The notes: generated by a model from the letters alone, not told the origin. A stretch of DNA of 64,000 nt from an uncultured Chloroflexia bacterium (GCA_963752475.1 CAVVYR010000008.1:544001-608000), one strand, 5' to 3'. Counted from the stretch's first letter, positions 31,608 to 49,202 are shown. Program-made: numbers and translations.

Positions 31608-31631
31608 ATGTCTGGTCGTCGCCGCCATGGC
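31608..31631. repeat. Site B0 (right half only; left boundary of array)
   Basis: ATGTCTGGTCGTCGCCGCCATGGC followed by tail D; left half absent or degenerate. Confidence 0.75.
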
Positions 31632-31662
31632 TGGGCGGCGCAGCCGAGGCGGCGCGCTGGGA

Positions 31663-32283
31663 CTAGTCAGCTGGTGGCCCGGTGGGCAACGGATACAGCT
31701 GGCGGCCCCCGGTCATGTCCGGGACCGGCTCGTCGGGGAACGACAGCATCTCGGCCTCGAAGATGTGGCCTTCGTATGCCAGGTCCCACGGGCCTTCCGC
31801 GTCCGCTGGGGTCACCCCGTGCAGCAGCGCATAGAGTCCCTCGTAGGCACCCTCACCGGCTAGGACGTAGAAGCTGTACCGCTTGCCGCCGCCGTTGACC
31901 CAGCGTCCGGTGCCACGCCAGCGCCCGTCCTCATCTTCCAGCAAGCTCCGGCTGACCGTGTTCATGGCGCCGTCGAGCACGTCCGACGGCTTCCAGATGA
32001 GCGTGTAGTCGAGCGTGAGCCAGAGGTCGTTCGGGAGTCGTGGGTCGCTCCACTCGACCACCTGGCGCATGAGAGCTGGCCGGCCCGTCCCGACCGTGAT
32101 CTCATACCCCCGCACGTCGGAGGGGACGTTCGCTTCGCTGAAGCTGTGGCCGTACACCTCGACCACGGTGCCGGTGACGAACGTTACCGGGGCCGGCACT
32201 TCCTGTGCCGCTGCGGTGGTTGCCAATCCGAAGCACAGCGCCAGGCTACCGAGGAGCGTCAGCGAGGCTCGAGCTGCAGGCAT
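31663..32283 (-). CDS. Secreted 'SDPRL'-family paralog 1
   Basis: Signal peptide; EWSDPRL, G.W.G.G, GEGAYEGL, YEG.IFE. Confidence 0.85.
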   Translation of the reverse strand: MPAARASLTLLGSLALCFGLATTAAAQEVPAPVTFVTGTVVEVYGHSFSEANVPSDVRGYEITVGTGRPALMRQVVEWSDPRLPNDLWLTLDYTLIWKPSDVLDGAMNTVSRSLLEDEDGRWRGTGRWVNGGGKRYSFYVLAGEGAYEGLYALLHGVTPADAEGPWDLAYEGHIFEAEMLSFPDEPVPDMTGGRQLYPLPTGPPAD

Positions 32284-32306
32284 TACGCACCTCCAAGTGC
32301 CCGCGC

Positions 32307-32379
32307 GCGGGCCGGGTCCGCCAGTGGCTTGACGCGGTCCAGGCGGCCATGGCTGGGGCCGCGCGTCATCGCCTCCCGC
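32307..32379 (-). ncRNA. c-di-GMP-II-like riboswitch, copy 1
   Basis: P1 GCGGG/CCCGC; K-turn-like GAUGA; pseudoknot CCGCC/GGCGG; 23 nt before ATG. Confidence 0.75.
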
Positions 32380-32431
32380 TAACTACGATTCTCTCTCGCG
32401 CGTCCATCAAGGCCGCCTGAGCAGCGTCCGA

Positions 32432-32478
32432 AATCGCCATGTATAACGGGTCTCGGTCTGATCGTTGCCGCCATGGCG
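32432..32478. repeat. Site B1
   Basis: AATCGCCATGTATAACGGGTCTCGGTCTGATCGTTGCCGCCATGGCG. Confidence 0.85.
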
Positions 32479-32703
32479 CAGGCAGCCGAGGTGACGATGG
32501 GCTAGTCCATGGGGTCAGGCTCGGTGGTGACCGGAACCGGAGCCTCTGGGAACGCCAGCATGTCGCCCTCGAAGACGTAGCCCTCATAGGAGACATCGGT
32601 CGGGCTTGGCATCCGCACCCCCGGTCCCCAGGGCACGGCGTGCAATCCCTCGTAGGCACCTTCGCCGGTCAACTCGTAGAAGCTGTACTTGCCGTGGGAG
32701 CTA

Positions 32704-33875
32704 GTGCCTCATGCCGCAATGGCGGGGAGCGAATGATGGACCTCGGCCTTGATGCGCCAGGGCTTGGCTGGGCGGCAGTTCCGGTTGTGCCAGCGGAGGT
32801 AGGCATGGATGGCCGCACCCTGCTCGTCGTGGCTGGCGTGGTCGCTGCCGTTGAGCGCGAAGCGCCGGAGGGCCTGGAACTGGCACTCGATGAGGTTGAG
32901 CCAGCTCGCGTAGGTGGGCAGGTACACGAGTTCGATGTCGTGCGCGTCGGCCCACTCGCGGAGCTCCTTCTTGAGATGCGGGCTGAAGTTGTCGAGCACC
33001 ACGATGAGGTGCTCGTCGAAGCGGGCCCGCAGCGAGCGCAGCAGCTCGCGCACCTCGCGCCAGGTCTTGGTCGCCCGGATGTGGCCGTAGAGCTTGCCGC
33101 TCGCGGGATCGTAGGCCGCGAGCAGCTGGCGCACGCCCGCGGTGCGCGTGTAGGTGGCCCGGAGGCGGGCCGGGTGCTTGCTCGGATGCCAGCCCGCTCC
33201 GAGGCGTGGCTGCAGGTTCAAGGGGCCGAACTCGTCGAGGCAGAGCACCCGGCTGCCCGCGGGCGGATGGGCGTAGAGGTCGAGCACGCGGTTCTTCTTG
33301 GCCTCGAAGTCCGGATCGGGCGAGGCCTTCGGGGTCTTGTGGTGCAGGAAGCGGATGCCATGCTCACGCAGGATGCGCCGGAGCTGGCTCCCGCTGATGG
33401 TCGGCACCACTCGCGTCCGGAGCAGGTGGTCGCGCAGCTTGGTCAGACTCCAGTCGGTGAAGGGCTCACCGAGGTCTCGGGGACGGGCGAGAGCCACCTT
33501 CACGATGGCCGCGCGCTGGGCCTCATCGATCCGGCGTGGTCGGCCCCCGCCCTTCCGAGGGTCCAGGGCCGCGAAGCCCCGCTCGTCGAAGGCGTGGATG
33601 AGTTCGGCCACGTGCGTCGCGCTGGCGCGGTGCAGCCGCGCGATCTCGGGCACGCTCTGGCCCTGGAACGAGGCGAAGAGGAGCATCGCCCGGTGCTGCG
33701 TGGTCGGGTTCGTACTGCGACGAGCGAGCCTGAGCAGGTGCATCGCCTCCCCATCGCTGAGCTCACGGATGAACAACTCGGGCCGGCGGGCCATCTGCAC
33801 CTCCCTGCGACGACGGGCCGAGGGTCGACCCTTGCGACAGTGCGATTACCTACCGGACATTATGAATCGAGGCAC
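32704..33875 (-). mobile_element. IS630-family insertion sequence
   Basis: TA duplication (32702-03 and 33876-77) within CTAG; terminal inverted repeat GTGCCTC, extending imperfectly to ~25 bp. Confidence 0.92.
32709..33800 (-). CDS. IS630 transposase
   Basis: HTH, GGGRP, WSL..L, CLDE, VLDNFSPH, LPTYASWLN.IE. Confidence 0.93.
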   Translation of the reverse strand: MQMARRPELFIRELSDGEAMHLLRLARRSTNPTTQHRAMLLFASFQGQSVPEIARLHRASATHVAELIHAFDERGFAALDPRKGGGRPRRIDEAQRAAIVKVALARPRDLGEPFTDWSLTKLRDHLLRTRVVPTISGSQLRRILREHGIRFLHHKTPKASPDPDFEAKKNRVLDLYAHPPAGSRVLCLDEFGPLNLQPRLGAGWHPSKHPARLRATYTRTAGVRQLLAAYDPASGKLYGHIRATKTWREVRELLRSLRARFDEHLIVVLDNFSPHLKKELREWADAHDIELVYLPTYASWLNLIECQFQALRRFALNGSDHASHDEQGAAIHAYLRWHNRNCRPAKPWRIKAEVHHSLPAIAA

Positions 33876-34303
33876 TAGCGATCAATCGCCCGGTGCCACT
33901 CCAACTCCCGACCTCATCCACCAACAGATGGTTGGTCGCGATGGTGGTCCATCCCCACTCGTCGGCAGGATGGGACACCGACTGGTGGTCCAGGGTGAAC
34001 CAGTGCTCGGCGGGGAGTCGTGGGTCGCTCCACTCGACTCGCTGCTCGATGAGGTCCACCCGGCCGCCGCTGGTCACCTCGTAGTCCCCCACGATGGTCG
34101 GCGGGTCTGGCTCGATGTCCTCCCAGTCCCGTGCTTCGGTGTGCACCGTCATGTCCCATGGGAACCCGGTCACGAAGGTGATGGGGCCAGGTCCCTCTGA
34201 CTGCGCAGCCGCCGTGATGAGCAGGCTGGCGAGCAGGACAAGAGCGGATGCCCCCGCCAGTACTGTCCGCAATGTACGCATCTCGCACCTCCTGGGTGCA
34301 TGC

Positions 34304-34378
34304 GCGGGCCGGGTTCGCCAGTGGCTCGGCGCGACTCAGGCGGCCAACGTACGCGAGTCGGACTTCACGGCCTCCCGC
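34304..34378 (-). ncRNA. c-di-GMP-II-like riboswitch, copy 2
   Basis: Same fold; inner stem shows compensatory GACUC/GAGUC. Confidence 0.75.
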
Positions 34379-34418
34379 TACCGATGATTCTCTCGCGAGC
34401 GTCCATCGGCAATCCCGA

Positions 34419-34463
34419 AATCGCCATGAATAGCGGGTTTGGTCTGGTCGTCGCCGCCATGGC
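34419..34463. repeat. Site B2
   Basis: AATCGCCATGAATAGCGGGTTTGGTCTGGTCGTCGCCGCCATGGC. Confidence 0.9.
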
Positions 34464-34490
34464 ACAGGCAACCGAGGCGGCCAGAAAGGG

Positions 34491-35372
34491 TTACTCGGCG
34501 GGCTTGGCCTCCGTCGTCCCGTCAACATCCGTCAGCGTGGCGCTCTCCACAACCGCAGGCTCGTCCGATGCGTTTCGGATCACATAGACCGTGTCGCCCG
34601 CGAATGAACCCGACGTGAGAATGTCGGCATCGGGCGCGATGAACCTGACCGAGTCGGTCAGCGCCCCGTCGACCTCGGATGGGGCAGCGAAGCCGCTCTC
34701 CAAGCGACCCTCTTCAAGCGCCAGGAGGCGCAGCACCCCGGCTTCGTCAGAGTCAAGCACCAGCTGGCCGCCGGGATCGAACGTGATTCGTTCGAGGATG
34801 ACCGCGACCGGGGCACTGATCAGCTCGGTCAGGGTCTCCTCGGCCGGGAAGTCCCAGACCAGCAACTGGTAGTCAGCACCCGGAGCAGGCTCCCTCGGTG
34901 TCTGCGGCTCAATGCTGTTGGCGATGCCCACGATGAACGATACGTACGGTTCCGTACCGTCGATCACCCACGAGCCCGAAGCCGCGCCGTCGTAGTACAG
35001 CACCACGTCACCAGCACCGAGGGCGATGGTGGCCATCGGGTCCGGAGCTCCATCGGAGCCGTCCTCACCCCAGAGGTGTGCCCGCGTGTCCTTCACGACC
35101 TGCGCGCTCCCTTGCTCCACGTACTCGACGTAGGTGTAGCCCGCTGGTTCCTCCGACCCTTCCTCAGCGCTGCTGCTCGGCTCGACCATGACACGCGCGA
35201 ACCACGTGTGATCGACATCCGGGGGTATGGCTTCCACAGGGATGACACCGCGGTCGCTCAGGACATCGACGTCGACGCCGGACGTACCTCCTTCTGCCGC
35301 GACCGCAGGCCCGAGACTGAGAACCAGCATCGTGAGAGCGGTGCCCGCGAGGCACTGACGTACGGTACGCAT
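34491..35372 (-). CDS. Secreted acidic protein, probable double cupin-like fold
   Basis: MRTVR signal peptide; 'YVEQGS','LGAGDVV' and 'RITFDPG','LEEGRL','RNASDEPA'. Confidence 0.7.
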   Translation of the reverse strand: MRTVRQCLAGTALTMLVLSLGPAVAAEGGTSGVDVDVLSDRGVIPVEAIPPDVDHTWFARVMVEPSSSAEEGSEEPAGYTYVEYVEQGSAQVVKDTRAHLWGEDGSDGAPDPMATIALGAGDVVLYYDGAASGSWVIDGTEPYVSFIVGIANSIEPQTPREPAPGADYQLLVWDFPAEETLTELISAPVAVILERITFDPGGQLVLDSDEAGVLRLLALEEGRLESGFAAPSEVDGALTDSVRFIAPDADILTSGSFAGDTVYVIRNASDEPAVVESATLTDVDGTTEAKPAE

Positions 35373-35389
35373 GGATCCCCCTTTCCAGC

Positions 35390-35462
35390 GCGGGCCGGGT
35401 TCGCCAGTGGCTCGGCGCGGCTCAGGCGGCCATGGTGTGGGCCGTGCGTCGTCGCCTCCCGC
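35390..35462 (-). ncRNA. c-di-GMP-II-like riboswitch, copy 3
   Basis: Conserved P1, pseudoknot and 3' GAGCCACUGGCGAACCCGGCCCGC. Confidence 0.75.
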
Positions 35463-35501
35463 TCAGTTGATTCTCTCGCGGGCGTCCAACGGTTCGCACG
35501 A

Positions 35502-35547
35502 AGTCGCCATGAATAGCGGGTTATGTCTGGTCGTCGCCGCCATGGCG
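35502..35547. repeat. Site B3 (TTATGTCTGGT variant)
   Basis: AGTCGCCATGAATAGCGGGTTATGTCTGGTCGTCGCCGCCATGGCG. Confidence 0.9.
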
Positions 35548-35583
35548 CCCGTGCGTCCGGCAGCCGAAGGCGGTGCGAGGGGG

Positions 35584-36135
35584 TTACTCGGCAGGCGGCA
35601 AGACCCACTCTGGTGGCTCGGGCCAAGCGCCGGGGATGATGACCCCCTCGACCTCCCAACCACCGGGAGCCGGACGCTGGATTAGCATGGCCGAGAGGCC
35701 CTCGTACCCATGCTCACCGGTGAAGTAGTTCACGTAGTGGCTGACTCCGGTGCCCGGCGTGAAGCCCTGACCCGCCATGGTCCAGGAACCGCCGTCGTTC
35801 GTCAGGCGTCCGATGAGCGTGCGCACCGTGGCCCCGGAGCCGTAGACGTCATAGTTGGAGTTCGCCTCCAACTCTCCGCTCAACCGCGGGTCGTCGGTCT
35901 CCAGGCTCAACGTCCAGCCGTAGTTCCGCGTGGACGCGACCATCGGCTGCGGCGAAGTCTCGGTCTGGGCGGACTGGTTCGGGGCGACGGCGCGGATGGT
36001 GCCGGTGACGACGGCGGGCGCGAGAACATCGGCTTCCGAAGCCGGGTCAGCATCCCGCGCCACGCCGGTGACGCTCGACGGTCCGAGCAGCGCCAGGGCG
36101 ACGGTCCCCACCAAGGACAACCGCAACGTACGCAT
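35584..36135 (-). CDS. Secreted 'SDPRL'-family paralog 3
   Basis: MRTLRLSLVGT signal; DDPRLSG, LTNDGGSW, GEHGYEGLSA. Confidence 0.85.
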   Translation of the reverse strand: MRTLRLSLVGTVALALLGPSSVTGVARDADPASEADVLAPAVVTGTIRAVAPNQSAQTETSPQPMVASTRNYGWTLSLETDDPRLSGELEANSNYDVYGSGATVRTLIGRLTNDGGSWTMAGQGFTPGTGVSHYVNYFTGEHGYEGLSAMLIQRPAPGGWEVEGVIIPGAWPEPPEWVLPPAE

Positions 36136-36153
36136 GACATCCCCCGTTCGTGT

Positions 36154-36226
36154 GCGGGCCGGGTTCGCCAGTGGCTCGGCGCGGTCCAAGGCGGCCATTG
36201 CTGGACCGCGCTTCGAAGCCTCCCGC
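36154..36226 (-). ncRNA. c-di-GMP-II-like riboswitch, copy 4
   Basis: Perfect 10-bp inner stem GCGCGGUCCA/UGGACCGCGC. Confidence 0.78.
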
Positions 36227-36275
36227 TATGTAGATTCTCTCGCCGACGTCCATCGGCTCCTCGGCCGTGCTCCAG

Positions 36276-36321
36276 AATCGCCATGCATAGCGGGTCATGC
36301 CTGGTGGTCGCCGCCATGGCG
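36276..36321. repeat. Site B4
   Basis: AATCGCCATGCATAGCGGGTCATGCCTGGTGGTCGCCGCCATGGCG. Confidence 0.85.
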
Positions 36322-36347
36322 CAGGCAGCTGGGGTGGGGGAATGGGG

Positions 36348-36947
36348 TCAGCCGAAGAAGACCGCGTCGATCAGCGCGAGCAGTGCGAACAGGGCGACGG
36401 GCAGCACCACGATTCCCAGCGCGATCAGGATCAGGAGTTCTCGGTCCGGGCGGCGAATCCCCTTGCTGCGGCGTCGGATGATGCTCCCGACCCTGTCGCC
36501 GAAGGCGGCGCCGATCGAGACCGTCACGAGCGCAGCGACGATGCCGTCGGGGATGTCGTCCTCGGGAAAGCCGAGTCGGCCACCGATACCGGTACTGAGG
36601 GCGAATCCGACGAGGGCTGCCGCCGCCATGGCGCCGATGAGACCGACCACACCGAGGCGTCGTCGTGGGGACGGCGAGTGCCCGATGATTCCCGCCGGGA
36701 CGACCGCGATGAGGATGCAGGCTGCCCAGAGGGTGATGGTCTCAGCAGACAGACCCCGGTAGCACCCCCAGCACTCCGGGTCGTCGTATCCGGGTTCGTA
36801 GAACTCCTGGATCATGTCCACCCACGCCGCTCCGAGCACGAGGCCGAGGACGAGGCAGAGTGCCGCTGCTACCGCGATGGCCGCGATGATTCGCCCGACG
36901 CCCGCAATCGGATCGACGCTGGTCCCACCCACGGGACGAGGTGCCAT
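36348..36947 (-). CDS. Hypothetical membrane protein (~5 TM) cassette
   Basis: Hydrophobic segments; CWGC motif in the first loop. Confidence 0.65.
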   Translation of the reverse strand: MAPRPVGGTSVDPIAGVGRIIAAIAVAAALCLVLGLVLGAAWVDMIQEFYEPGYDDPECWGCYRGLSAETITLWAACILIAVVPAGIIGHSPSPRRRLGVVGLIGAMAAAALVGFALSTGIGGRLGFPEDDIPDGIVAALVTVSIGAAFGDRVGSIIRRRSKGIRRPDRELLILIALGIVVLPVALFALLALIDAVFFG

Positions 36948-37031
36948 GTCTGTCGCCCCTCCATCCACCGATCCGCCAATCCCGATCGTCGCCGGTGTCA
37001 GCGTCGGGTCAAGCAAGGTGCAGCCGTGCTA

Positions 37032-37049
37032 CGTCTCGTAGCCTCCCGC
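37032..37049 (-). ncRNA. Riboswitch remnant, copy 5 (5' end only)
   Basis: GCGGGAGGCUACGAGACG matches the 5' end of copy 11; the rest is missing. Confidence 0.6.
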
Positions 37050-37089
37050 TACCTACAATTCTCTCGCGGGCGTCCATCAGCCGACCCTG

Positions 37090-37135
37090 AATCGCCATGA
37101 ATAGCGGGTTTGGTCTGGTCATCTCCGCCATGGCG
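37090..37135. repeat. Site B5
   Basis: AATCGCCATGAATAGCGGGTTTGGTCTGGTCATCTCCGCCATGGCG. Confidence 0.9.
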
Positions 37136-37318
37136 GTTGACCGCGCTTCGATACTTAGGCACAGAAACGGGGGCACCCGGGGCGATGAGACGCTTCCTGT
37201 CCCGACGGCCAGATCCAGAGCGTCGCTTCGTCGAGCTCCTCGAGCGCGCTCGCGTGATGACGGATCCTTCATGGCGCGACCACGCCACGTCCGACGAGCA
37301 GCTCGCGATCAGGGCGCA

Positions 37319-37933
37319 CTAGCCGCCCAGCTGGTACCTGCCCCGCTCCAGCTCCTGGACGTCGGGGCAGAAGTCGCCGCCCTCCTGCCCTTCGGTGGAG
37401 GCGATGCCCACGAAGTACAGATCGTCCGGGTCGCCCACCAGCTTGCGATCGACGGTCAGCGTCAGGATCGTTCCCTCGACCTCGACGTCGACGACGCCCC
37501 AGAACACCGGGTCGCCCTCGGTCAGCGTCGCGTCGAACAGCGGGGCACCGGACACGGCCTCCTGCTCGAGCGTGGCTCCATGGACGACGAGGACGTGGGT
37601 GATGTCATCGGGGAAGACCGCCGCCGGATCGGCCGACAGGCCGACCCACAGCTCATCCGTCGACATCGTCTCGACGTCATACGAGAGCGGTGGCTCCGCG
37701 GCGAACTCGAAGGTGAAGCTGACGAGGGATTGCCAGGGTTCAGCGATGCTGCAGGACAAGAAGTCGGGCCCTGCGCCGCCAGGGACGTCGCCGACGGGGT
37801 CCTCGTAAACCGCCAGCGGGACGATCGGCGCGTCGGTCGGCTCCGGCTCGACCTCGGCGGCAGCCACCCCGGTCGCGCTCGCCAGCACGAGCGCAGCGGC
37901 GGCCGTCAGGATCCTCGATATCAGGGTCATCAT
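37319..37933 (-). CDS. Secreted acidic hypothetical protein
   Basis: Signal peptide; 'DPVGD.....PD' and C-terminal 'D.CPD' motifs; GGAGG RBS. Confidence 0.75.
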   Translation of the reverse strand: MMTLISRILTAAAALVLASATGVAAAEVEPEPTDAPIVPLAVYEDPVGDVPGGAGPDFLSCSIAEPWQSLVSFTFEFAAEPPLSYDVETMSTDELWVGLSADPAAVFPDDITHVLVVHGATLEQEAVSGAPLFDATLTEGDPVFWGVVDVEVEGTILTLTVDRKLVGDPDDLYFVGIASTEGQEGGDFCPDVQELERGRYQLGG

Positions 37934-37946
37934 CCCCTCCTGTCAC

Positions 37947-38014
37947 GTTCCGCAAGTGGCGTGGCGCGGTCTGGGGCGACCGTGGTCGACGGGCCGTGCG
38001 TCATCGCCTCCCGC
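37947..38014 (-). ncRNA. Degenerate riboswitch, copy 6 (3' P1 strand lost)
   Basis: 5' two-thirds conserved; CCGG-CCCGC missing. Confidence 0.6.
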
Positions 38015-38064
38015 TACACCCAATTCTCTCGCGGGCGTCCATCAACCACCCTTGAACAGCACGG

Positions 38065-38110
38065 AATCGCCATGAATAGCGGGTTTGGTCTGGTCGTCGC
38101 CGCCATGACG
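38065..38110. repeat. Site B6
   Basis: AATCGCCATGAATAGCGGGTTTGGTCTGGTCGTCGCCGCCATGACG. Confidence 0.9.
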
Positions 38111-38136
38111 CAGGCAGCCGAGGCGGCGCGCTGGGA

Positions 38137-39042: not shown

Positions 39043-39059
39043 GCCATCTCCCTTCGTCA

Positions 39060-41664: not shown

Positions 41665-41690
41665 CGGGCAGCCGAGGCGGCGCGATGGGG

Positions 41691-42242
41691 TTACTCGGCG
41701 GCGTCCGGCTCCGGGACCTCCGGCACCTCGCTCGGGAAGATGACGCCCTCGAGGCTCAAAGCGGAAGGTTGCAGCACATTGCCCGTTTCGAGGACAACCA
41801 TCGCACTGAGTCCCTCATAGCCATCGCGGCCAGTGGGCGCCACCCATCGCACGGAACGTGGATCCCCGCGCAGATCGGTGAGGTAGCCATTGCCTTCACC
41901 CAGCCAACTGCCGCCGTCGTTGGTCAGCTCGTATGTGTGCGAGTCGATGGCGGTGTCGGAGCCGCCGTCCCAGTGCCAGGTGACGGTGCGCGTCACGGTG
42001 CCATTCAGACGAGGGTCACTCGTGCTCCAGACGCCGGCGACCGCTCCGGTGTTGATCGCGCCTCCCATATCGAGGATGACGAAGTCCCCGCCTACCTCCC
42101 GGCGTTCCCCTCTCATCAAGGCGCTCCCGGTCACCTCAGCAGCCTCCATGTTCGGCTCGTCCTGTGCCGCGACTCCGACCACCGAGCCGGCGAACAGGCC
42201 GAGCGCGAGGATGGAGATGGTGGTGGTCCTGATCGCCCGCAT
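41691..42242 (-). CDS. Secreted 'SDPRL'-family paralog 4 (no riboswitch)
   Basis: TSDPRLNG, LTNDGGSW, GRDGYEGLSA, LEGVIF. Confidence 0.85.
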   Translation of the reverse strand: MRAIRTTTISILALGLFAGSVVGVAAQDEPNMEAAEVTGSALMRGERREVGGDFVILDMGGAINTGAVAGVWSTSDPRLNGTVTRTVTWHWDGGSDTAIDSHTYELTNDGGSWLGEGNGYLTDLRGDPRSVRWVAPTGRDGYEGLSAMVVLETGNVLQPSALSLEGVIFPSEVPEVPEPDAAE

Positions 42243-42374
42243 GGGCAGTCTCCCTGCCCCCCGTGGTGGACGCGTCAAACCAAGCCCCCTCGCGTCCTCA
42301 CCACATAGAGGTCGCCAGACCCTCCAAGCGTTCCATCTTCTTGCGCCGCGGGCAGCCGAGGCGGCGCGATGGGG

Positions 42375-42908
42375 TTACTCGGCGAGCGGCACGGGCACTT
42401 CGGGCGCCGGTGGCGGTTCACCCTCGAAGATGACACCGTCGAACACGGTCTGGCCCTCCTCGACGACATGGGCCACGACACTCCAGCCGTCGTACGCACC
42501 CTCGCCTCGGAGCACACTGGTCACCGGCCAGGGGCGCTGGCGCCCGCTCGCGCGATACCAGGTGTTCGGCTCTTCCTGCCACGCTCCCTCGTCGTTCTCG
42601 ACCCGCATCGTCCCGTTCCAGAGGTTGAACCCCCCGGGGTCCGAGTGCTGGTCCCGGTTCGCGGCCCACGTGTACGTGCCCGAGAAGCGCGGGTCGCTGG
42701 ACTCGATGACGACGCCCGTCTCGATGACACCTCGGTACTCGACCAAGTCGTCGCCGAAGACGAACGTTCCCGGCTCGACGACCGTGTCGACGGTGGCCCT
42801 GGCCTGGAACTCGGTGACTGTCGGCTCCTCGGCTGTGGTCACTCCCGTTCCGACGACCGCCAGCATGAGCACAGACACCGCAGCCGCGAACGGCCTGATG
42901 GCGCGCAT
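42375..42908 (-). CDS. Secreted 'SDPRL'-family paralog 5
   Basis: SSDPRFSG, VENDEGAW, GEGAYDGW, FDGVIFEG. Confidence 0.85.
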   Translation of the reverse strand: MRAIRPFAAAVSVLMLAVVGTGVTTAEEPTVTEFQARATVDTVVEPGTFVFGDDLVEYRGVIETGVVIESSDPRFSGTYTWAANRDQHSDPGGFNLWNGTMRVENDEGAWQEEPNTWYRASGRQRPWPVTSVLRGEGAYDGWSVVAHVVEEGQTVFDGVIFEGEPPPAPEVPVPLAE

Positions 42909-42924
42909 GACATCCTCCTCATCC

Positions 42925-42998
42925 GCGGGCCGGGTTCGCCAGTGGCTCGGCGCGGTCCAGGCGGCCCTGGTGGTAGGCCGTGCGTCGCAGCCTCCCGC
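42925..42998 (-). ncRNA. c-di-GMP-II-like riboswitch, copy 9
   Basis: Full-length conserved unit, 16 nt before ATG. Confidence 0.75.
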
Positions 42999-43054
42999 TA
43001 GGTCCATTGTCTCGCGGGTGTCCATGGGCAGGCAGCCGAGGCGGCGCGATGGGC

Positions 43055-43960
43055 TTACTGGAGGAGCTCCATCACGGTCTCGATCGTGAGGTCGCCCGGC
43101 GTGATGTGGCCACCGGCGAACTCCACCAGCTCGACGTCGTACCCGGCTTCGGCGAGCACGGCCTCGAACGCGGCTGAGTTCTCCGGCGATACTGTCGAGT
43201 CATCCTCCCCGTGGACCAGCCGTACCCGCAGCTCAGGATGCACCCCGACCGCGCCGTAGAGCATCTCCCACAGCTCGGGTTCATGCTCCATCAGGAGGTC
43301 GCGGCCGTACCTGCCCTCGTAGCCCACGAAGGCGTCGTAGGCGCCCGCGACGCCCATGAAGCCATCGACACGGGTCGAGGCGTCGCTGGCCGTGCACTCG
43401 AACTGGGATGGCGGACCACCTGCGGACTCGGCGTACTCGTCCCACACGCGGTCGAAGTCCTCTCCGACGAGCGCGACATGTGCCGGCGGTCCGCCATCCA
43501 GCGACCACCCGGTCAACACCAGCGGCGCCGTCTCGCTGCCGTACTCCGAGCCACGGGCGAAGCGCACGGCGCAGGCCACGGCCTCCACGGCCGCGCGGAC
43601 GACCGTCGGGTCCGCATGGAGCACGACCTCCGACCACTGGAGCGGGGGCGAGCCGGTCACGAAGACGGACACACCCTGCTCGGCCAGTGCCTTCGAATTC
43701 ACCGCCGACCCGCCTACGCTGACGACCATGGGTGCATCCTCGCTCTCGGCAGTGACGTGGACACGGAGCTTCAGCTCGGTCCCCTCACCATCCGGTGAAC
43801 TTCCCGTGGCGTAGACGAGGTCCTTGATGACCGAGACCTCGGCCGGAGAGTCCGATGTCGCACCAGCTGACTCGTCGCCGTCGGTCTGGGCAGCCACGCC
43901 GAGCGGCAGCATGGCCACCGCCACGGCCACCCCCGCCAACACTGCTCGCGGCGTTCGCAT
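43055..43960 (-). CDS. Secreted alpha/beta hydrolase
   Basis: GWSLDG nucleophile elbow, HG.DD, GGH; MRTPR signal. Confidence 0.8.
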   Translation of the reverse strand: MRTPRAVLAGVAVAVAMLPLGVAAQTDGDESAGATSDSPAEVSVIKDLVYATGSSPDGEGTELKLRVHVTAESEDAPMVVSVGGSAVNSKALAEQGVSVFVTGSPPLQWSEVVLHADPTVVRAAVEAVACAVRFARGSEYGSETAPLVLTGWSLDGGPPAHVALVGEDFDRVWDEYAESAGGPPSQFECTASDASTRVDGFMGVAGAYDAFVGYEGRYGRDLLMEHEPELWEMLYGAVGVHPELRVRLVHGEDDSTVSPENSAAFEAVLAEAGYDVELVEFAGGHITPGDLTIETVMELLQ

Positions 43961-43978
43961 GACACTCCCCCTTCATGT

Positions 43979-44053
43979 GCGGGCCGGGTTCGCCAGTGGC
44001 TCAGCGTGGTCCAGGCGGCCAACGTCGAGGAGCCGCGCGTCAGCGCCTCCCGC
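43979..44053 (-). ncRNA. c-di-GMP-II-like riboswitch, copy 10
   Basis: Full-length conserved unit. Confidence 0.73.
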
Positions 44054-44104
44054 TACTGATGATTCTCTCGCGTGCGTCCACCGGCTCGATGGGCACTCGT
44101 CCAG

Positions 44105-44150
44105 AATCGCCATGAATAGCGGGTTATGTCTGGTGGTCGTCACCATGGCC
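44105..44150. repeat. Site B10 (TTATG variant)
   Basis: AATCGCCATGAATAGCGGGTTATGTCTGGTGGTCGTCACCATGGCC. Confidence 0.88.
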
Positions 44151-44229
44151 AATCACGCCGCCGGGCCGTCCGGCCCTTGACCCGCTGAGCGGGGCGCGGA
44201 GGATAGGGTCGCGAGCCAGGAGGGGGAAC

Positions 44230-45492
44230 GTGATGTCCAAGCGAGGCGGGGCCTTGGCGCCGACGCTGCCGCGGATTCTGCTGGCGCTCCTGGCCATGCC
44301 CCTGGCGCTCGCGGCGAGCGCGGGCGCGCCCCACGCCGCCGCTGAGCCCGTGGATGCGATGCCTACGATCACGCTTGTCGAGCAGCGTGTAATCAGAATC
44401 GCGGACAGTCAGTTGCTCTCGCTGTCGCCTGACGGTGGCTCGATCGTCGTCACCCGACCAGCTGGGCCGATGCCAACCGAGCTCTGTATCCACGAGGTGG
44501 CGACGCTCGCCGTGCGCATCTGCGCGGACGTCAGTGACCTCGATGCGGGCCTCTGGCCCGACAGCGTGGTCTGGTCACCCGACAGTGCGTGGCTGGCCTT
44601 CGCCGAGCTGTGGCCCATGTTCTTGGTCGATGGCGACCTGTGGCTCATGGACGCCTCCACTGGTGCGCTCGGCAACTTGCTCGACGATGGCTTCAGCGGC
44701 GCCCTGGGGGAAGCGGCTGCAGGCGAACTCACCTGGAAGGGCGTCATCACGCTGCCGATGTACCCGACGTTCACGCCTGACAGCGCCGCGGTGACGTTCT
44801 CGCGGACCACGGTCCAGGCCGGCGAGTTCAGCGGTGTTGGGGACATCGCAACGCTCCCCATCACCGGTGGCGATGCGGTCACGCTGGGCGGTTCCGAACG
44901 CGAGGAGTTGGTCGGCGAGTATCGCACCATGCAGTGGGCAGCAGACGGATCCGCCCTCTATGTCTCCCTCGTCGACCAGCAGGCTTCAAGGCTCGGACCT
45001 GACAGCGGGATCTGGGTGTTCGAGGCTGATGGAAGGCACGCCCGCCAACTCCTGAGCATCACTGGCCGCGACGACTGGCCGACGCGCATCTTGGCGGTGT
45101 CCCCGCGTGGGGAGCGCCTCCTCGTATCGGACCCGAGGGCGGCCGCGGGCGGCGCCCCGCTATGTGCTTGCTCGGTGGTCGATGGCTCGACCGGAGCCGC
45201 GGAGCCCATCGAGCCGCTGGGATCGGAAGCCCGCCAGTCCACGCCCATCACCGGGGCGATGCTCTCGCCGGATGGGTCGCTGGTGATCACGGTCTCAGGC
45301 CATCTCGAGAAGCAGGTGGCCGTCCGGGAGGTGGCAACGTCGAACGAGACGGTCCTGCTACGGGAGCCGTCTGGGACCGCCCCATCGGACCTCGCGGGCG
45401 AGGTCCTGACCTGGGCCCAGGACGACACGGTGCTGGTCGATGGAGCCAGACGCGGCCGCGGTACGCTGATCGTCCTCGACCGGGGAAGCTAG
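44230..45492 (+). CDS. Secreted TolB/WD40-like beta-propeller protein
   Basis: Signal peptide; LSPDG, WSPDS, FTPDS, LSPDG blades; GGAGG RBS. Confidence 0.8.
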   Translation: MMSKRGGALAPTLPRILLALLAMPLALAASAGAPHAAAEPVDAMPTITLVEQRVIRIADSQLLSLSPDGGSIVVTRPAGPMPTELCIHEVATLAVRICADVSDLDAGLWPDSVVWSPDSAWLAFAELWPMFLVDGDLWLMDASTGALGNLLDDGFSGALGEAAAGELTWKGVITLPMYPTFTPDSAAVTFSRTTVQAGEFSGVGDIATLPITGGDAVTLGGSEREELVGEYRTMQWAADGSALYVSLVDQQASRLGPDSGIWVFEADGRHARQLLSITGRDDWPTRILAVSPRGERLLVSDPRAAAGGAPLCACSVVDGSTGAAEPIEPLGSEARQSTPITGAMLSPDGSLVITVSGHLEKQVAVREVATSNETVLLREPSGTAPSDLAGEVLTWAQDDTVLVDGARRGRGTLIVLDRGS

Positions 45493-45585
45493 GGCAGAGC
45501 CTGGCAGCGACGTCGTCGGGGCCAAGCCTGCGACAAGCCGTGCGGCTGCCAAGAGGCGTCAAGCTCCGCCTAGACGGTCGTGTGG

Positions 45586-45631
45586 GATCGCCATGAATAG
45601 CGGGTTTGGTTTGGTCGTCGCCGCCATGGCG
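45586..45631. repeat. Site B11 (no riboswitch)
   Basis: GATCGCCATGAATAGCGGGTTTGGTTTGGTCGTCGCCGCCATGGCG, between convergent genes. Confidence 0.9.
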
Positions 45632-45660
45632 CAGGCCGCCGAGGCGAAGCGATGGGGCTG

Positions 45661-46860
45661 CTACTCGATGGCCGATGCAGCGTCCGGGGTGATCACGTAG
45701 GTCTCGATGCTGTCCCGGGCCAGGCCGAGCGTCTGGAGCTCGGTCCCATCTTCAAGGGTCACGACGTCCCCATCGGATGTGGATGCGGCCCTGACCCACA
45801 CGTTGCCATCAACGTCGATATCGATCTCCTGGACGCACCGGTCCGTCAGGAAGCGACGCCAGGTCGTGCCATCGAAGCGGCCGAGACCGTCGCAGGAGAC
45901 CAGGTGCGAGCACATGACCCCGCAGGGCTGCTCGGTCTTGAAGGACGCCCACAGACTGCCATCCGGCCCCAGCACGCCAGGGTTCCACCACGCGGACGTC
46001 GTGCCACCGACGGGTAGGGGCACCTCGAGTCGCTGCTTGTCGCCGTTCTCTTTCAAGGAGCGGATGACGATGCTCTCGCCGCCGAGCGCCAGGGTCCGGA
46101 CTGCACCGTCGCTTCCGATGACGAAACCGTATCCTGGCAACCCTGCCACGGGCATCCAGCCATCGTCGGTGAGGCGGCTCACGGCCGTCTTCCGGCGCAG
46201 CCACAGCGCACCGTCCGGGGCCACGTCCCACGACCTGATGTTGTTGGCCTTCGGCTTGTCCGCCGGGTGCTTGGGCAGGCGGGTCCAGGAGTCGCCTTCG
46301 AGACGCAGGAATCGACCGCCGCCCGGGCGATCGGTCTCCCTCAAGGCCCACACGGTGCCATCGGGTTGGAGGCGGAAGTCGAGACCCTCGTACACGTTGC
46401 CCGTGCGCTTGAGCCGCGGCCGCCAAGCGGTACCGTCATGCGAGTAGAGGGTCCAGCGGACGGGCCGGCCTTCCACGGTCCCGTCATGGGCGACGATCCA
46501 CGGCGTGCCATCCGATCCGACCTGGACCGGCCACGGGACGTTCTCCCGCGTCCGCCCGTCCGGGTAGGGAAGCTCCTGCTCTGCACCCAACTCGAGGAGA
46601 TCCCGGTCCCCCATGAGCCACACGCTGCCATCAAGGCCGATGGCCAACTCATCGTTCAGGCCGCTCCTCCCGATCGATCCCGCAAGCTCTCGAACACCGC
46701 CCCCAAGGACCCGTAGGACACCCGGTTCGACCTCCTCGGTCACCAGGCCCGCGAGCAGCCCGCCGGTACCGCTCTGGCCGCTGGCCTCTTGCCCCGCTGC
46801 GGCAGTGCTCGAGGTCAGGACCAAGGCAAGCGTCAACGCCGTCGCGATACGTGCACGCAT
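45661..46860 (-). CDS. Secreted beta-propeller protein (DG.VW repeats)
   Basis: Signal peptide; repeated 'DG(S/T).W' and 'FDG..W'. Confidence 0.8.
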   Translation of the reverse strand: MRARIATALTLALVLTSSTAAAGQEASGQSGTGGLLAGLVTEEVEPGVLRVLGGGVRELAGSIGRSGLNDELAIGLDGSVWLMGDRDLLELGAEQELPYPDGRTRENVPWPVQVGSDGTPWIVAHDGTVEGRPVRWTLYSHDGTAWRPRLKRTGNVYEGLDFRLQPDGTVWALRETDRPGGGRFLRLEGDSWTRLPKHPADKPKANNIRSWDVAPDGALWLRRKTAVSRLTDDGWMPVAGLPGYGFVIGSDGAVRTLALGGESIVIRSLKENGDKQRLEVPLPVGGTTSAWWNPGVLGPDGSLWASFKTEQPCGVMCSHLVSCDGLGRFDGTTWRRFLTDRCVQEIDIDVDGNVWVRAASTSDGDVVTLEDGTELQTLGLARDSIETYVITPDAASAIE

Positions 46861-46877
46861 GACGTCCCCTCTTGCAT

Positions 46878-46953
46878 GCGGGCCGGGTTCGCCAGTGGCT
46901 CGGCGCGGTCCAAGGCGGCCAACGTACACAGGCCGCGTCTCGTAGCCTCCCGC
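46878..46953 (-). ncRNA. c-di-GMP-II-like riboswitch, copy 11
   Basis: Full-length conserved unit. Confidence 0.73.
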
Positions 46954-46992
46954 TACCTACGATTCTCTCGTGGGCGTCGACCGCGATCACAG

Positions 46993-47038
46993 ATCCGCCA
47001 TGAATGGCGGGTTTGGTCTGGTCGTCGCCGCCATGGCG
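46993..47038. repeat. Site B12
   Basis: ATCCGCCATGAATGGCGGGTTTGGTCTGGTCGTCGCCGCCATGGCG. Confidence 0.88.
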
Positions 47039-47064
47039 CCGGCAGGCGAAGCGGCGCATGGGAA

Positions 47065-47097
47065 CCCCGCCCCCGGTCCTCCACGCCGGGGGCGGGG
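47065..47097. terminator. Strong GC hairpin (no U-tract)
   Basis: CCCCGCCCCCGG-9 nt-CCGGGGGCGGGG. Confidence 0.4.
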
Positions 47098-47162
47098 CCT
47101 ACAGGGGGGTGCCTGGTTGACAAGTCCTGAGCGCCGCAGGCAGCCGAATCGGCGCGATGGGG

Positions 47163-47732
47163 TCACTCGGCAGGCGGTCCTGGCAGCGGTGGCAGTCCGC
47201 TCTCGATGATCCAGCCTTCATACTGCTCGTCCCACGGTCCGTCGGGGTCGTGGTCGGGCGCACCTCGCAGCAGGGCGTGCATGTCCTCGTAGGCCCCGTC
47301 ACCCTCCAGAACGTAGTAGCTGTAGTGCCGCTCCGGGTCGGGACCGTAGCCCTGCTTGATGGCCCGCCCGGTGCCATGCCAGCGGCCCTCAGAGCCGTCC
47401 AGCAGGACGTTCATCTCGGTGACCATCACGAAGTAGTCCTCGATGGCCTCCACGTCGACCTCCTCGCCCTCGAGTTCGGGCGGCACGTCACCATAGAGGT
47501 ACCAGGCACCCTCGACCTCGAGCGTCGGCGGCAGGCGCGGGTCGCTCCACTCCACGGTCTGCTCCCACGTGGCGCGGCCCTCGTCCTCGGTCGCGGAGTC
47601 ATTGGTGTCACCGACCGCCGTGCCGGTGACGAAGACGGCGCGGACCGCCTCCTTGTTCATCTGCGCGGCGACCGCGACCGTGGAACCGAAGACCAGCGCC
47701 ACGGCGACGGCGACCACCCATGGCGTACGCAT
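47163..47732 (-). CDS. Secreted 'SDPRL'-family paralog 6
   Basis: EWSDPRLP, GRWHGTG, GDGAYE, YEGWIIE. Confidence 0.85.
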   Translation of the reverse strand: MRTPWVVAVAVALVFGSTVAVAAQMNKEAVRAVFVTGTAVGDTNDSATEDEGRATWEQTVEWSDPRLPPTLEVEGAWYLYGDVPPELEGEEVDVEAIEDYFVMVTEMNVLLDGSEGRWHGTGRAIKQGYGPDPERHYSYYVLEGDGAYEDMHALLRGAPDHDPDGPWDEQYEGWIIESGLPPLPGPPAE

Positions 47733-47750
47733 GACATCCCCCTTCCTTCT

Positions 47751-47824
47751 GCGGGCCGGGTCCGCCAGTGGCTCGGCGCGGTCCAAGCGGCCATGGTGGT
47801 GGGCCGTGCGTCATCGCCTCCCGC
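47751..47824 (-). ncRNA. c-di-GMP-II-like riboswitch, copy 12
   Basis: Full-length unit with GGCGG pseudoknot strand. Confidence 0.75.
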
Positions 47825-47898
47825 TACGTCAGATTCTCCACCTGGCGGCAATCAAGGTCTCCTGACGAGCCGAAGGCAGCCCCGGCGGCGCGATGGGG

Positions 47899-49023
47899 TC
47901 ACTCAGGGAACGTCTGCATCCCTTCGGTCGTGACCGACTCCGGCTGGGCCGGGAACACCATCGGGTCGGTCTCGAAGATGTAGCCCTCGTACGAGTGGTC
48001 GAGTGGTCCGCTGGCATCTGCACCCGGAGTCATACGCAACACGGCCCAGAGTCCGTCGTAGGCGCCCTCGCCGGTCAGTTCGTAGAGGCTGTAGCGGTGG
48101 TCGAGACCCTCGACCGCTCGACCGGTACCCCGCCAACTTCCCTCAGGGCCTTCCAGCAGGTTGCTGGTCGTGACGGCCATCGCGCCCTCCGGAGGCCCCT
48201 GCGCCTCTCGCGGGTCGAGGATGAAGGCGAGGTTCATGTTCATCCAGTGCTGCGATGGCAGGCGCGGGTCGCTCCATTCGATGACTTGCTCGATGACCCC
48301 GTAACTCTCAGCGCCGACCAACCAGCCCCCCACCTCGTGGGGTGGTCCTTCGACGATGGTGTTCGCCCCCGGGTGGTCGTACTGCTCGACCACGGTCCCG
48401 GTGACGAAGGTGACGGGAGCCGGTTCCTCGTCCTGCTCGGCCAGAGTCGCGGACAGAGGCAGCTCGATGGGGTCAGGCATCGGCGGCACCTCGCTCTCGA
48501 AGACGTAGCCGTCGTAGATGCTCGTGACGTGGCCGTCAGCATCGATGACCGGGTTGCCGCCAGCATCCACCACGAGCGACCCTTCGAGCATCGCCCAGAG
48601 ACCTTCGTACGCACCGCTGCCGGTGAGGACATACAGCCCGACCGACGACTCCGGGTCCACGAGCGAGTACTCCGTCCCGGCCCAGTCACCCTCCTCGCCG
48701 ACCAGCCGGACGGCGACGGCGAATGCTCCGACAGCGCCGTCTTCGAGTTCGTGCCAGTTGGCGTTGGTGTCGTACAAGAACCGCGACGGCAGACGCGGGT
48801 CACTCCACTCGACGGTGCGCTCGGTCAGCACGCCGCGCGAGTAGTGCACGTCACCGTCCTCCCACTCTACGGGTTCCGAAGTCATGGACGTGCTCAGCTG
48901 TGTGCCGGTGACGTGGGTCGCAGACGGCGCTTCGCCATCGTCCTGAGCCGTGACGAGCACGGCCAGACCGCCGACCAAGGCGAGCACGACCATCCCGGAC
49001 AGGGTATGCAGCAACGTTCGCAT
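47899..49023 (-). CDS. Secreted 'SDPRL'-family paralog 7 (two tandem domains)
   Basis: EWSDPRLP and G.GAY.GLWA each occur twice. Confidence 0.88.
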   Translation of the reverse strand: MRTLLHTLSGMVVLALVGGLAVLVTAQDDGEAPSATHVTGTQLSTSMTSEPVEWEDGDVHYSRGVLTERTVEWSDPRLPSRFLYDTNANWHELEDGAVGAFAVAVRLVGEEGDWAGTEYSLVDPESSVGLYVLTGSGAYEGLWAMLEGSLVVDAGGNPVIDADGHVTSIYDGYVFESEVPPMPDPIELPLSATLAEQDEEPAPVTFVTGTVVEQYDHPGANTIVEGPPHEVGGWLVGAESYGVIEQVIEWSDPRLPSQHWMNMNLAFILDPREAQGPPEGAMAVTTSNLLEGPEGSWRGTGRAVEGLDHRYSLYELTGEGAYDGLWAVLRMTPGADASGPLDHSYEGYIFETDPMVFPAQPESVTTEGMQTFPE

Positions 49024-49040
49024 GAGGTCCCCTCGCTTGA

Positions 49041-49115
49041 GCGGGTCGGGTTCGCCAGTGGCTCGGCGCGGTCCGGGCGGCCATGATCGAGGAGTCGCGC
49101 TTCATCGCTTCCCGC
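49041..49115 (-). ncRNA. c-di-GMP-II-like riboswitch, copy 13 (A/C/A pocket variant)
   Basis: GCGGGAAGCGAUGAA...GGCGAACCCGACCCGC; closest to the canonical consensus. Confidence 0.78.
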
Positions 49116-49165
49116 AACACCGATTCTCTCGCGGACGTCCAACCGCTCGAAGTCGGCTCGACGGG

Positions 49166-49202
49166 AATCACCATGAATAGCGGGTTATGTCTGGTCGTCG
49201 CC
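49166..49202. repeat. Site B13 (right end truncated; right boundary of array)
   Basis: AATCACCATGAATAGCGGGTTATGTCTGGTCGTCGCC, then unrelated sequence. Confidence 0.85.

Follow-up and report, generated by a model that had tools for sequence, protein, structure and literature searches.

Organization of the array

Between positions 31594 and 49209 of a stretch of DNA from an uncultured Chloroflexia bacterium lies an array of 16 cargo genes, 14 on the minus and two on the plus strand, together with one copy of an IS630-family insertion sequence (IS), nine above-threshold riboswitch aptamers, and 14 copies of a 47-bp junction site, termed B, that share a single orientation. The whole stretch analyzed, referred to as the window, is 64,000 nt long, has a G+C content of 68.6%, and is part of contig C8 of the source genome, G000 (4.25 Mb in 38 contigs, 88.8% complete). 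Coordinates are positions in the window and strands are given relative to it. Gene models come from our own simple codon-usage caller and are crude. The relatives used for comparison form a Limnocylindrales-like genus of the Chloroflexota, for which sister-family genomes measure 1.0–1.4 Mb; the array-bearing bacterium inhabits soil and sediment.

An earlier note, made by a model from the sequence alone, had described this region as an integron-like platform of riboswitch-controlled cassettes for secreted proteins. That idea is largely borne out, as the order and content of the genes differ between relatives. The modular repeat is real, and on the minus strand a stop codon, tail D, site B, a spacer, box C, the aptamer, a ribosome-binding site, and an ATG follow one another in the order described. 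The repeat was said to separate the genes, and B is present in 14 copies; it is missing at three junctions, near 47880, 43030, and 42360. The count of 16 genes stands as a count of cargo genes, to which must be added the IS630 copy (32698–33879) that interrupts one paralog. Judged by eye, 15–16 of the 16 N-termini look signal- or anchor-like; the note had given 15 predicted signal peptides. Riboswitch control, attributed to the units in general, holds for the forward class, with an intact aptamer kept by only 9–10 of the 16 cargo genes; it does not extend to the two inverted genes (39292–40482 and 44233–45492, plus strand), neither of which has a riboswitch. Both inverted genes have clear signal-like N-termini, and the opposing minus-strand frame is not protein-like. 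The aptamer itself is ~85 nt long, rather than ~73 nt.

The features of the array and its upstream border are as follows (aa, amino acids; c-di-GMP, cyclic di-GMP).

31594–49209, minus: whole array, from site T to the first junction site; 16 cargo genes and IS630
31594–31633, minus: terminal site T, with B-type left arm, core GCGACGACCAGAC, and right arm ATCGTACGCCTGGCGA; imperfect palindrome GGCGACGAC/CAGAC/..TCGTACGCC; tail D before it (31637–31656)
31663–32283, minus: cargo gene, 206 aa, secreted beta-barrel paralog of family H1
32301–32406, minus: box C (32387–32406) and c-di-GMP-II-GCG aptamer (32385–32301, 62.2 bits)
32432–32498, minus: site B (32432–32478) and tail D (32479–32498)
32698–33879, minus: IS630-family insertion, DDE_3 transposase at 32709–33794
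33850–34281 and about 32500–32697, minus: H1 paralog split by IS630
34298–34405, minus: box C and aptamer (34384–34298, 52.6 bits)
34419–34484, minus: site B (34419–34463) and tail D (34465–34484)
34491–35372, minus: cargo gene, 293 aa, signal-like N-terminus, no Pfam match
35384–35488, minus: box C and aptamer (35468–35384, 61.1 bits)
35502–35547, minus: site B
35584–36198, minus: cargo gene, H1; likely start an ATG near 36135, past the aptamer
36148–36252, minus: box C and c-di-GMP-II-GAG aptamer (36232–36148, 60.7 bits)
36275–36321, minus: site B
36348–36947, minus: cargo gene, 199 aa, membrane-anchor-like N-terminus; upstream, box C (37057–37076) and the 5' part alone of an aptamer (about 37049–37020)
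37089–37135, minus: site B
37319–37933, minus: cargo gene, 204 aa; upstream, box C (38022–38041) and partial aptamer (38008–37951, 26.3 bits)
38064–38130, minus: site B (38064–38109) and tail D (38111–38130)
38137–39042, minus: cargo gene, 301 aa, BD-FAE/alpha-beta-hydrolase esterase by Pfam
39054–39158, minus: degenerate box C and sub-threshold aptamer (39136–39054, 42.7 bits against 47.9)
39181–39247, minus: site B (39181–39227) and D/E hybrid (39228–39247), the latter with TTGACC on the plus strand, upstream of the inverted gene
39292–40482, plus: inverted cargo gene, 396 aa, signal-like N-terminus, Gly/Asn-rich repeats, no riboswitch
40510–40555, minus: site B in a convergent intergenic region, promoter module on neither side
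40695–41522, minus: cargo gene, 275 aa, RTX calcium-binding repeats by Pfam; upstream, box C (41577–41596) and aptamer with internal deletion (about 41569–41540)
41618–41684, minus: site B (41618–41664) and tail D (41665–41684)
41691–42242, minus: cargo gene, H1, 183 aa; upstream no B, C, or aptamer, tail D alone (42349–42368)
42375–42908, minus: cargo gene, H1, 177 aa
42919–43048, minus: GAG-type aptamer (43004–42919, 47.4 bits), box C (43005–43024), and tail D (43029–43048); B deleted
43055–43960, minus: cargo gene, 289–301 aa, no Pfam match
43973–44080, minus: box C and aptamer (44059–43973, 62.4 bits)
44104–44190, minus: site B (44104–44149) and module E (about 44150–44190), whose reverse complement has TTGACC ~60 nt upstream of the inverted gene
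44233–45492, plus: inverted cargo gene, 419 aa, signal-like N-terminus, no riboswitch
45587–45651, minus: site B (45587–45631) and tail D (45632–45651), convergent intergenic
45661–46860, minus: cargo gene, 399 aa, signal-like N-terminus
46872–46980, minus: near-consensus box C and GAG-type aptamer (46959–46872, 57.2 bits)
46993–47156, minus: site B (46993–47038), second D-like copy (47039–47058), and tail D (47137–47156); between the D copies an 80-nt insert with a GC-rich hairpin
47163–47732, minus: cargo gene, H1, 189 aa, modeled as an 8-stranded beta-barrel
47745–47892, minus: aptamer (47830–47745, 52.5 bits) and tail D (47873–47892); no B, box C shrunk to GGAGAATC
47899–49023, minus: cargo gene, 374 aa, double-length H1-family protein
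49035–49141, minus: box C and aptamer (49121–49035, 60.5 bits)
49165–49209, minus: first junction site, with core, B-type right arm, and alternative-type left arm (..CATCCCTCAGGG, like CATGTAACAAGG)
49331–51305, unstranded: repeated DNA with IS481-type transposase fragment, upstream array border
51310–51858, minus: gene, 182 aa, secreted-looking, upstream of the IS, no family match; may be the oldest cassette of the array

Junction site B

Site B consists of a left arm, the 13-bp core GCGACGACCAGAC, and a right arm, with CATGGCG boxes repeated on either side of the core. An nhmmer profile of B gave 16 matches in the source genome, 14 of them in the array, and 82 when the window was searched together with the loci first collected from relatives. 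The exact core occurs 11 times in the genome, whereas 30 shuffled versions of it average 0.4 occurrences (maximum 3). Of 49 genomes of the genus, 13 contain a strict B pattern and none its reversed control; three matches of the pattern to IMG/VR viral contigs, none in a B context, are attributed to chance. Across species B is nearly invariant while spacers, cargo, and flanks differ.

In each mapped array, all B matches lie on one strand, which is shared by the forward genes with box C and aptamer and opposed by the inverted genes with module E. B is found alike at forward-forward, convergent, divergent, and inverted-inverted junctions, including two convergent junctions of the window (40510–40555 and 45587–45631) that have no promoter nearby, and this distribution argues against B as a simple promoter, operator, or terminator. 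The single-strand folding energy of D plus B is no better than chance as compared to shuffles (z −0.2 to −1.9); B is therefore not a hairpin of the attC type, and a role as RNA hairpin was rejected on the same result. B and T probably act as double-stranded DNA. A coding role for B, as a plus-strand MNSGFGLVVAAMA... peptide, was also rejected: copies vary by 1-nt indels and some contain in-frame stops.

An IS110-family element was found inside B in two genomes (L039:5480–7120, minus strand, and L034:3150–4900), with a remnant in a third (L015 near 9795–11045), and B is therefore also a specific IS target. The insertion point falls between CCCG-CT and CT-ATTC of B, with CT on both sides, and two more B sites stop after CCCGCT with no adjoining IS. 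The element is 98% identical in the two species, has ~300 nt of non-coding DNA before its gene, and encodes a 396-aa transposase whose matches to PF01548 (85.8–86.7 bits) and PF02371 (83.5 bits) in both genomes place it in the IS110 family.

Terminal site T and the shared core

Every array with a visible downstream end stops at a second site, T, in which the B left arm and the core GCGACGACCAGAC are followed by RTCGTAYGCSTGGCGA. T is an imperfect palindrome (GGCGACGAC / CAGAC / GTCGT(A)CGCC), with two inverted arms of 9–10 bp flanking a short spacer, and the copy at 31594–31633 is the only T in the source genome. The earlier note missed both T and the core that B and T have in common. T and this shared core are the main evidence for a putative recombination site.

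Sites carrying the T right arm number 17 in the loci studied and lie beside at least six unrelated housekeeping flanks. A scan of GTDB for the T pattern returned 31 loci; 21 have the arms and all 21 carry labels of Chloroflexota type, and the other ten, from other phyla, lack the arms. All ten T-pattern matches in JGI metagenome contigs have the arms. The arms are also modular. A second left arm, Lt (..CATGTAACAAGG), exists alongside the B-type left arm (Lb), and both can be joined to either the B-type (Rb) or the T-type (Rt) right arm. Among 152 core sites, 98 are Lb-Rb, 16 Lb-Rt, two Lt-Rb, and one Lt-Rt; one has Lt joined to an unclassified right arm, and the rest have a recognizable Lb only (13), Rb only (12), or neither arm (nine). 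Three more Lt-Rt sites lie beyond this count (in L057, L067, and L068), which brings the combination of Lt and the T right arm to four places. Lt joined to the B right arm is seen twice, once at the first site of the window array (49165–49209), and the left arm CATGTAACAAGG that the left arm of this site resembles is found beside other arrays.

At one orthologous locus, three species have the flank gene and Rt in common at 90–97% identity, and the last cassette differs among all three; two of the species have Lb as their left arm, and the third has Lt. A shared flank and Rt next to a differing left arm and last cassette therefore place the boundary between cassette and flank DNA at the core.

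Two loci depart from the usual arrangement. L032:18742–18830 is a composite in which a full T is followed immediately by CCAGAC and a B-type right arm, one inverted cassette, and a second T, and T can therefore be internal if a cassette is added beyond it by a different join. At L015:1689–3805, two T-type sites 2.1 kb apart enclose an M20 peptidase gene, the outer site having the alternative left arm; the peptidase gene and outer site recur in another genome (L057).

Turnover of cassettes between relatives

The flanks of the window array, an rpiB-like/methyltransferase side and a GFO-oxidoreductase/ABC-transporter side, are conserved in relatives. Between them, three genomes have no cassettes, five have 2–9 genes, one has at least 11, and the source genome, in which the far flank is lost, has 16 cargo genes, or 17 counting the 182-aa gene upstream of the IS. 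The identical order and content that would speak against a cassette system is thus not what is seen in the relatives: both differ at the same locus, from 0 to 17 or more cassettes. Together with the near-identical cassettes found in different arrays, this variable content favors the view of the units as cassettes.

Turnover is not spread evenly along the arrays. The cassettes shared between species adjoin the far flank, and comprise a SnoaL-like gene (91–94% aa identity) and an H1 gene of 185 aa with a 222-aa gene of family H64 (86–90% aa identity); the genes found between these and T, numbering 4, 6, and 10, are species-specific. At a second locus, on the hisA side, the genes common to two long arrays are mostly far from T, with one inverted exception. 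Novelty beside T with shared genes at a distance is as insertion at T predicts.

Cassettes also recur between arrays. A 687-bp cassette (D-B-gene-E-B) is 99.4% identical between two arrays of one genome, a 1215-bp aptamer-esterase-D-T block is 99% identical between two arrays of another, and ~15 further blocks at 88–98% identity link arrays across species and loci. Homologous recombination clearly contributes to cassette movement. The precise crossover points are harder to read from such blocks: B is conserved everywhere, so BLAST blocks run through it and their ends do not locate the crossover, and rare variants gave mixed answers. Logan contigs of four coded runs mapped to positions 30501–50000 break at repeats, and their joints link paralogous modules through short sides (21–46 letters) at 90% likeness, and are indistinguishable from those of other arrays or organisms. 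Contigs from RNA libraries are identical to parts of the array and may reflect DNA carry-over.

Riboswitches and expression modules

Rfam models identified ten c-di-GMP-II-GCG/GAG aptamers at or above the gathering score in the window, nine of them within 31608–49202. These nine score 47.4–62.4 bits and span model positions 1–85/86 (RF03170 for GCG, RF03169 for GAG). A relaxed search added the sub-threshold aptamer at 39136–39054 and the partial match at 38008–37951; with remnants near 37049 and 41569, one array aptamer is below threshold and three are truncated. The genome as a whole has 35 matches, 33 above the cut-off.

Box C, T[TGA]GNC[AG]-N7-GAnAAT, precedes 30 of the 35 genomic aptamers, ending 1–6 nt before the Rfam model start, and has only 39 occurrences genome-wide. 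A Shine-Dalgarno-like motif and a start codon follow all 35, the start codon lying within 17 nt in 33, and many of the genes downstream share a ATGCGTACGTTGCG... signal-peptide start. Given this co-occurrence, box C, aptamer, and signal-peptide start constitute a genome-wide expression unit and are therefore not array-specific. Box C and aptamer had been taken as parts of the array; the array-specific element is B. Box C is most simply read as a −10-type promoter element, and riboswitch control would most simply be exerted at translation initiation, as is implied by the 7–17 nt between aptamer end and start codon.

A forward cassette is thus made up of box C, aptamer, signal-peptide start, cargo, and tail D. 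For the inverted genes, both in the window and in the relatives' arrays, module E with a conserved TTGACC lies upstream when they are read in their own sense. The suggestion that units carry their own regulation therefore needs qualifying by class, with box C and an aptamer in each forward cassette and the promoter-like module E, but no riboswitch, in the inverted ones. In the array no sigma-70 consensus promoter was found, and terminator-like sites number five against 4.0 expected. As the earlier note proposed, the cassettes may come under one second-messenger signal. In the parts of the literature that were accessible, papers naming the GAG and GCG variant families only list them among Rfam classes, and no ligand data for these aptamers appear there.

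One c-di-GMP-II-GCG aptamer of the window (27549–27463, minus strand, 61.2 bits) stands alone outside the array and has no standard box C. The gene behind it encodes a membrane protein of 99 aa that matches DUF5658 weakly, and at least five relatives (L010, L017, L018, L019, and L022) have the aptamer at the corresponding position.

A model for array growth and its alternatives

The reading we favor, with a probability of roughly 0.55, is that the array stacks cassettes in the manner of an integron and gains them at T through recombination in the core, carried out by an enzyme acting in trans. A cassette with a B-type site would recombine with T inside the shared core, leaving an ordinary B on the inner side and regenerating T at the end, so that the newest cassettes would accumulate beside T and older ones would be displaced outward from it. 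Candidates for the enzyme are the host's Xer-type tyrosine recombinases or an unrecognized recombinase. A forward cassette would arrive with its promoter-like box C, aptamer, signal-peptide start, and tail D, and an inverted one with its own promoter-like module E and no riboswitch; homologous recombination between conserved modules would also move cassettes between arrays. The wider proposition, that these arrays represent a previously unrecognized gene-capture system of the Chloroflexota, parallel to integrons in function without sharing their components, is more tentative, and we would put it slightly below even odds.

Several observations weigh against growth by core recombination. No recombinase is linked to any mapped array in the source genome or the five relatives searched. 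The only tyrosine recombinases in the source genome, at its 88.8% completeness, are two Xer-like genes and one fragment; the genome has no Resolvase domain, no Y1 transposase, and a single weak partial "Recombinase" match, and the window has no PF00589 match. The five other B-bearing genomes have an Xer pair and scattered integrases, none beside the mapped arrays, and Xer is present in B-less genomes as well, so the presence of this enzyme does not explain the distribution of B. T and B also look unlike the common dif consensus, from which the host's own dif may differ. The 99.4% block extends from the very start of D through the very end of the second B and takes in rare outer-arm variants at both of its flanking B sites, which fits homologous recombination or gene conversion better than core exchange; other blocks end at the aptamer start, at the D start, or after CCCGCT, the position of the IS110-family insertions, and the rearrangement is not clean. 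In the three genomes in which the conserved locus is cassette-less no T was found, which leaves the seeding of arrays unexplained. The stratigraphy draws on a small sample, with four genomes for one locus and two to four for the other, and in the short, repeat-broken Logan contigs no circles, empty sites, or strain-level indels were visible.

The best-supported alternative does without a site-specific step. Arrays would arise by tandem duplication combined with homologous recombination, gene conversion, or break repair via the conserved modules, with D-B, B, C-aptamer, and the signal-peptide start serving as portable homology. B and T would then be kept by another function or by constant homogenization, the palindromic T could be a break-prone spot, and repair templated on another array would add cassettes there. 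Such an origin is in keeping with block boundaries that lie at the outer edges of homology modules and not in the core, with the seven of 16 cargo genes that are paralogs, with a C-aptamer-signal-peptide module spread over 30–35 genes genome-wide, and with the failure to find a dedicated recombinase. It leaves without explanation, however, why every array ends in the same T at no fewer than six unrelated loci, and it has difficulty with two arm types that join exactly at a 13-bp core, a length too short for efficient RecA recombination. Nor does it account for the single orientation of B and its presence where no gene needs it, for the confinement of novelty to the T side, or for the nine cargo genes that are mutually unrelated. 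We regard this alternative as unlikely, though it carries appreciable weight.

Less probable still is that B and T are purely transcriptional elements, such as an array-wide operator, a bidirectional terminator, or an insulator, with turnover reflecting ordinary island dynamics. B does lie close to the presumed promoters, 14–28 nt upstream of box C in forward units and, in the window's two inverted units, ~10–45 nt from a TTGACC that belongs to module E or to the D/E hybrid; D and the B left arm can form a GC-rich hairpin after forward genes, and some arrays contain genes for extracytoplasmic function (ECF) sigma factors. Yet the hairpin is undercut by folding that resembles that of shuffles, terminator-like patterns are at chance level in an array that has no sigma-70 consensus promoter, and B occurs in convergent and divergent junctions alike. 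Furthermore, 24 riboswitch units outside the array manage without B, with one exception on contig C29, and the T right arm is conserved beside unrelated flanks. We therefore consider a purely transcriptional role improbable.

Membership among classical integrons or CALINs (attC clusters without integrase), which a one-orientation array of short cassettes with content varying between relatives might suggest, is refuted by the integrase, attC, and promoter tests and is given almost no weight: the IntI model passes in one of 49 genomes, and that one lacks B, the B copies have neither RYYYAAC...GTTRRRY ends on direct reading nor a hairpin beyond chance, and the cassettes carry their own expression signals. 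In the 13 B-bearing genomes the integron integrase model TIGR02249 found only Xer-like partial matches of ~85 bits and no integron integrase. The one genome of the genus above its cut-off encodes a bona fide integron integrase (G061:C10:96075–97019, 483.7 bits against a cut-off of 265) and lacks the B pattern, so that within the genus classical integrons and B arrays are found in separate members.

Comparison with known systems

Among platforms that stack single-gene cassettes, only integrons, with IntI and attC as their defining parts, are well understood. The arrays described here resemble them in being long rows of single-gene cassettes with one site orientation, a repeated site at each junction, and a special site at the growing end, in having content that differs among close relatives and is newest beside that special site, and in the insertion of an IS family into the junction site. 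IS1111-attC elements insert into integron junction sites; here the family is IS110. They differ in that IntI is absent and B is unrelated to attC and not hairpin-like. It is the array's 3' end that would grow, and this end adjoins ordinary housekeeping genes, not an integrase and a common promoter. Unlike promoterless integron cassettes, those of the window bring a promoter-like box and a riboswitch, or a promoter of their own when inverted.

Modules mobilized by Xer, such as the pdif modules of Acinetobacter plasmids and the integrative mobile elements exploiting Xer (IMEX) at dif, also have cassettes bounded by short recombination sites, and their mobility depends on a host recombinase that the element does not encode, as is proposed here. 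The two inverted arms of T around a short spacer recall the core sites of tyrosine recombinases, and GGCGACGAC and GTCGT(A)CGCC around CAGAC can be set beside the layout of XerC arm, 6-bp center, and XerD arm; Xer-like genes are likewise the only tyrosine recombinases found in this genome. In contrast to pdif sites, which alternate in orientation, the B sites of each array lie on one strand, and a chromosome can have several arrays at loci away from the terminus.

The four arm combinations on one core are what core exchange would give under the attP/attB logic of phage lambda, in which the CATGGCG boxes of B could be arm-type sites. Unlike lambda, the inserted DNA has no integrase and consists of many small inserts in series, and unoccupied-looking sites are rare, with none at cassette-less loci. 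Finally, the nine array aptamers and 33 genomic aptamers above the family threshold belong with the c-di-GMP-II variants RF03170 and RF03169, and differ from them in forming part of a fixed unit (box C 1–3 nt upstream, Shine-Dalgarno motif and start codon 7–17 nt downstream, conserved signal-peptide start) on unrelated cargo. No description of such a unit was found in the portions of the literature that were accessible, and no paper there connects Limnocylindrales-type bacteria with riboswitches or, among the papers listed, with cassettes or integrons, the matches being lists of Rfam variants and unrelated integron work.

Cargo proteins and neighboring elements

In the window array Pfam assigns a family to the BD-FAE esterase, the RTX-repeat protein, and the transposase alone, and Pfam and NCBIfam together leave most cargo proteins without one. 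Of two esterases proposed earlier, one was recovered (38137–39042) and the second was not confirmed; the RTX-repeat protein (40695–41522) had been named correctly, as had the existence of a single paralog family, to which the seven H1 genes correspond. The H1 structure model predicts an 8-stranded beta-barrel (predicted local distance difference test score, pLDDT, 84.8), and a fold search yielded weak likeness alone, to AOC, Diels-Alderase, and DUF3224 barrels (best E 1.7e-3, template modeling (TM) score 0.4–0.6). An ortholog of the inverted gene 44233–45492 has a weak match to the PD40 beta-propeller. Tail D extends into the coding region at 32479–32500, 34484–34493, 41684–41693, and other 3' ends, and unrelated cargo proteins end in ..P-A-E (or similar) and a stop, encoded by GCCGAGTAA then CCCCATCGCGCC; the final codons and the stop thus seem to be contributed by D.

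The IS630 copy at 32698–33879 matches PF13358 (72.8 bits), HTH_32, and HTH_29 and has a 99.5% identical copy on contig C7; its DDE_3 domain, N-terminal helix-turn-helix domains, and multiple copies are those of the IS630 family. The repeated DNA at 49331–51305 consists of two adjoining segments, 96–99.6% identical to copies on contigs C4, C8, C20, and C21, with the first junction site directly on one side and the next gene for a secreted protein directly on the other. At the equivalent array end one relative has an IS21 element (IstA/IstB, L009:3705–5698), and a heliorhodopsin gene (Pfam E 3.9e-75, L009:2295–3152) lies a few kb upstream of its array. In another relative, a cluster of five tRNA genes and a cyclic di-AMP riboswitch adjoin the array (L023:14799–16618).

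ECF-type sigma factor genes (Sigma70_r2/r4_2) stand beside H1-family genes of 246–339 aa on contig C29 of the source genome (L043:5628–9575) and in a relative (L041), and also occur within the arrays of two relatives. At one conserved locus, the sigma and H1 genes lie beside a lone B-C-aptamer unit. The longer H1 relatives near ECF sigma genes might be anti-sigma-like partners.

Implications

If the arrays are an independent solution to the problem that integrons solve, cassette stacking has evolved more than once. This version would stand apart through its different sites, its 3'-end growth, its riboswitch-bearing cassettes, and the lack of an integrase linked to it; it would also add two short recombination sites that form a new pair and give reason to seek their recombinase. 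Should the enzyme prove to be Xer, elements that exploit Xer would extend from plasmids and dif-linked islands to chromosomal arrays. Independently of how the arrays grow, some 30 or more variant c-di-GMP-II aptamers per genome on unrelated cargo offer a natural set for studies of ligand and function. For the organism itself, array growth of the kind proposed would explain the diversification of secreted proteins in a little-known soil and sediment lineage, whose cells would assemble a signal-responsive and fast-changing secretome.

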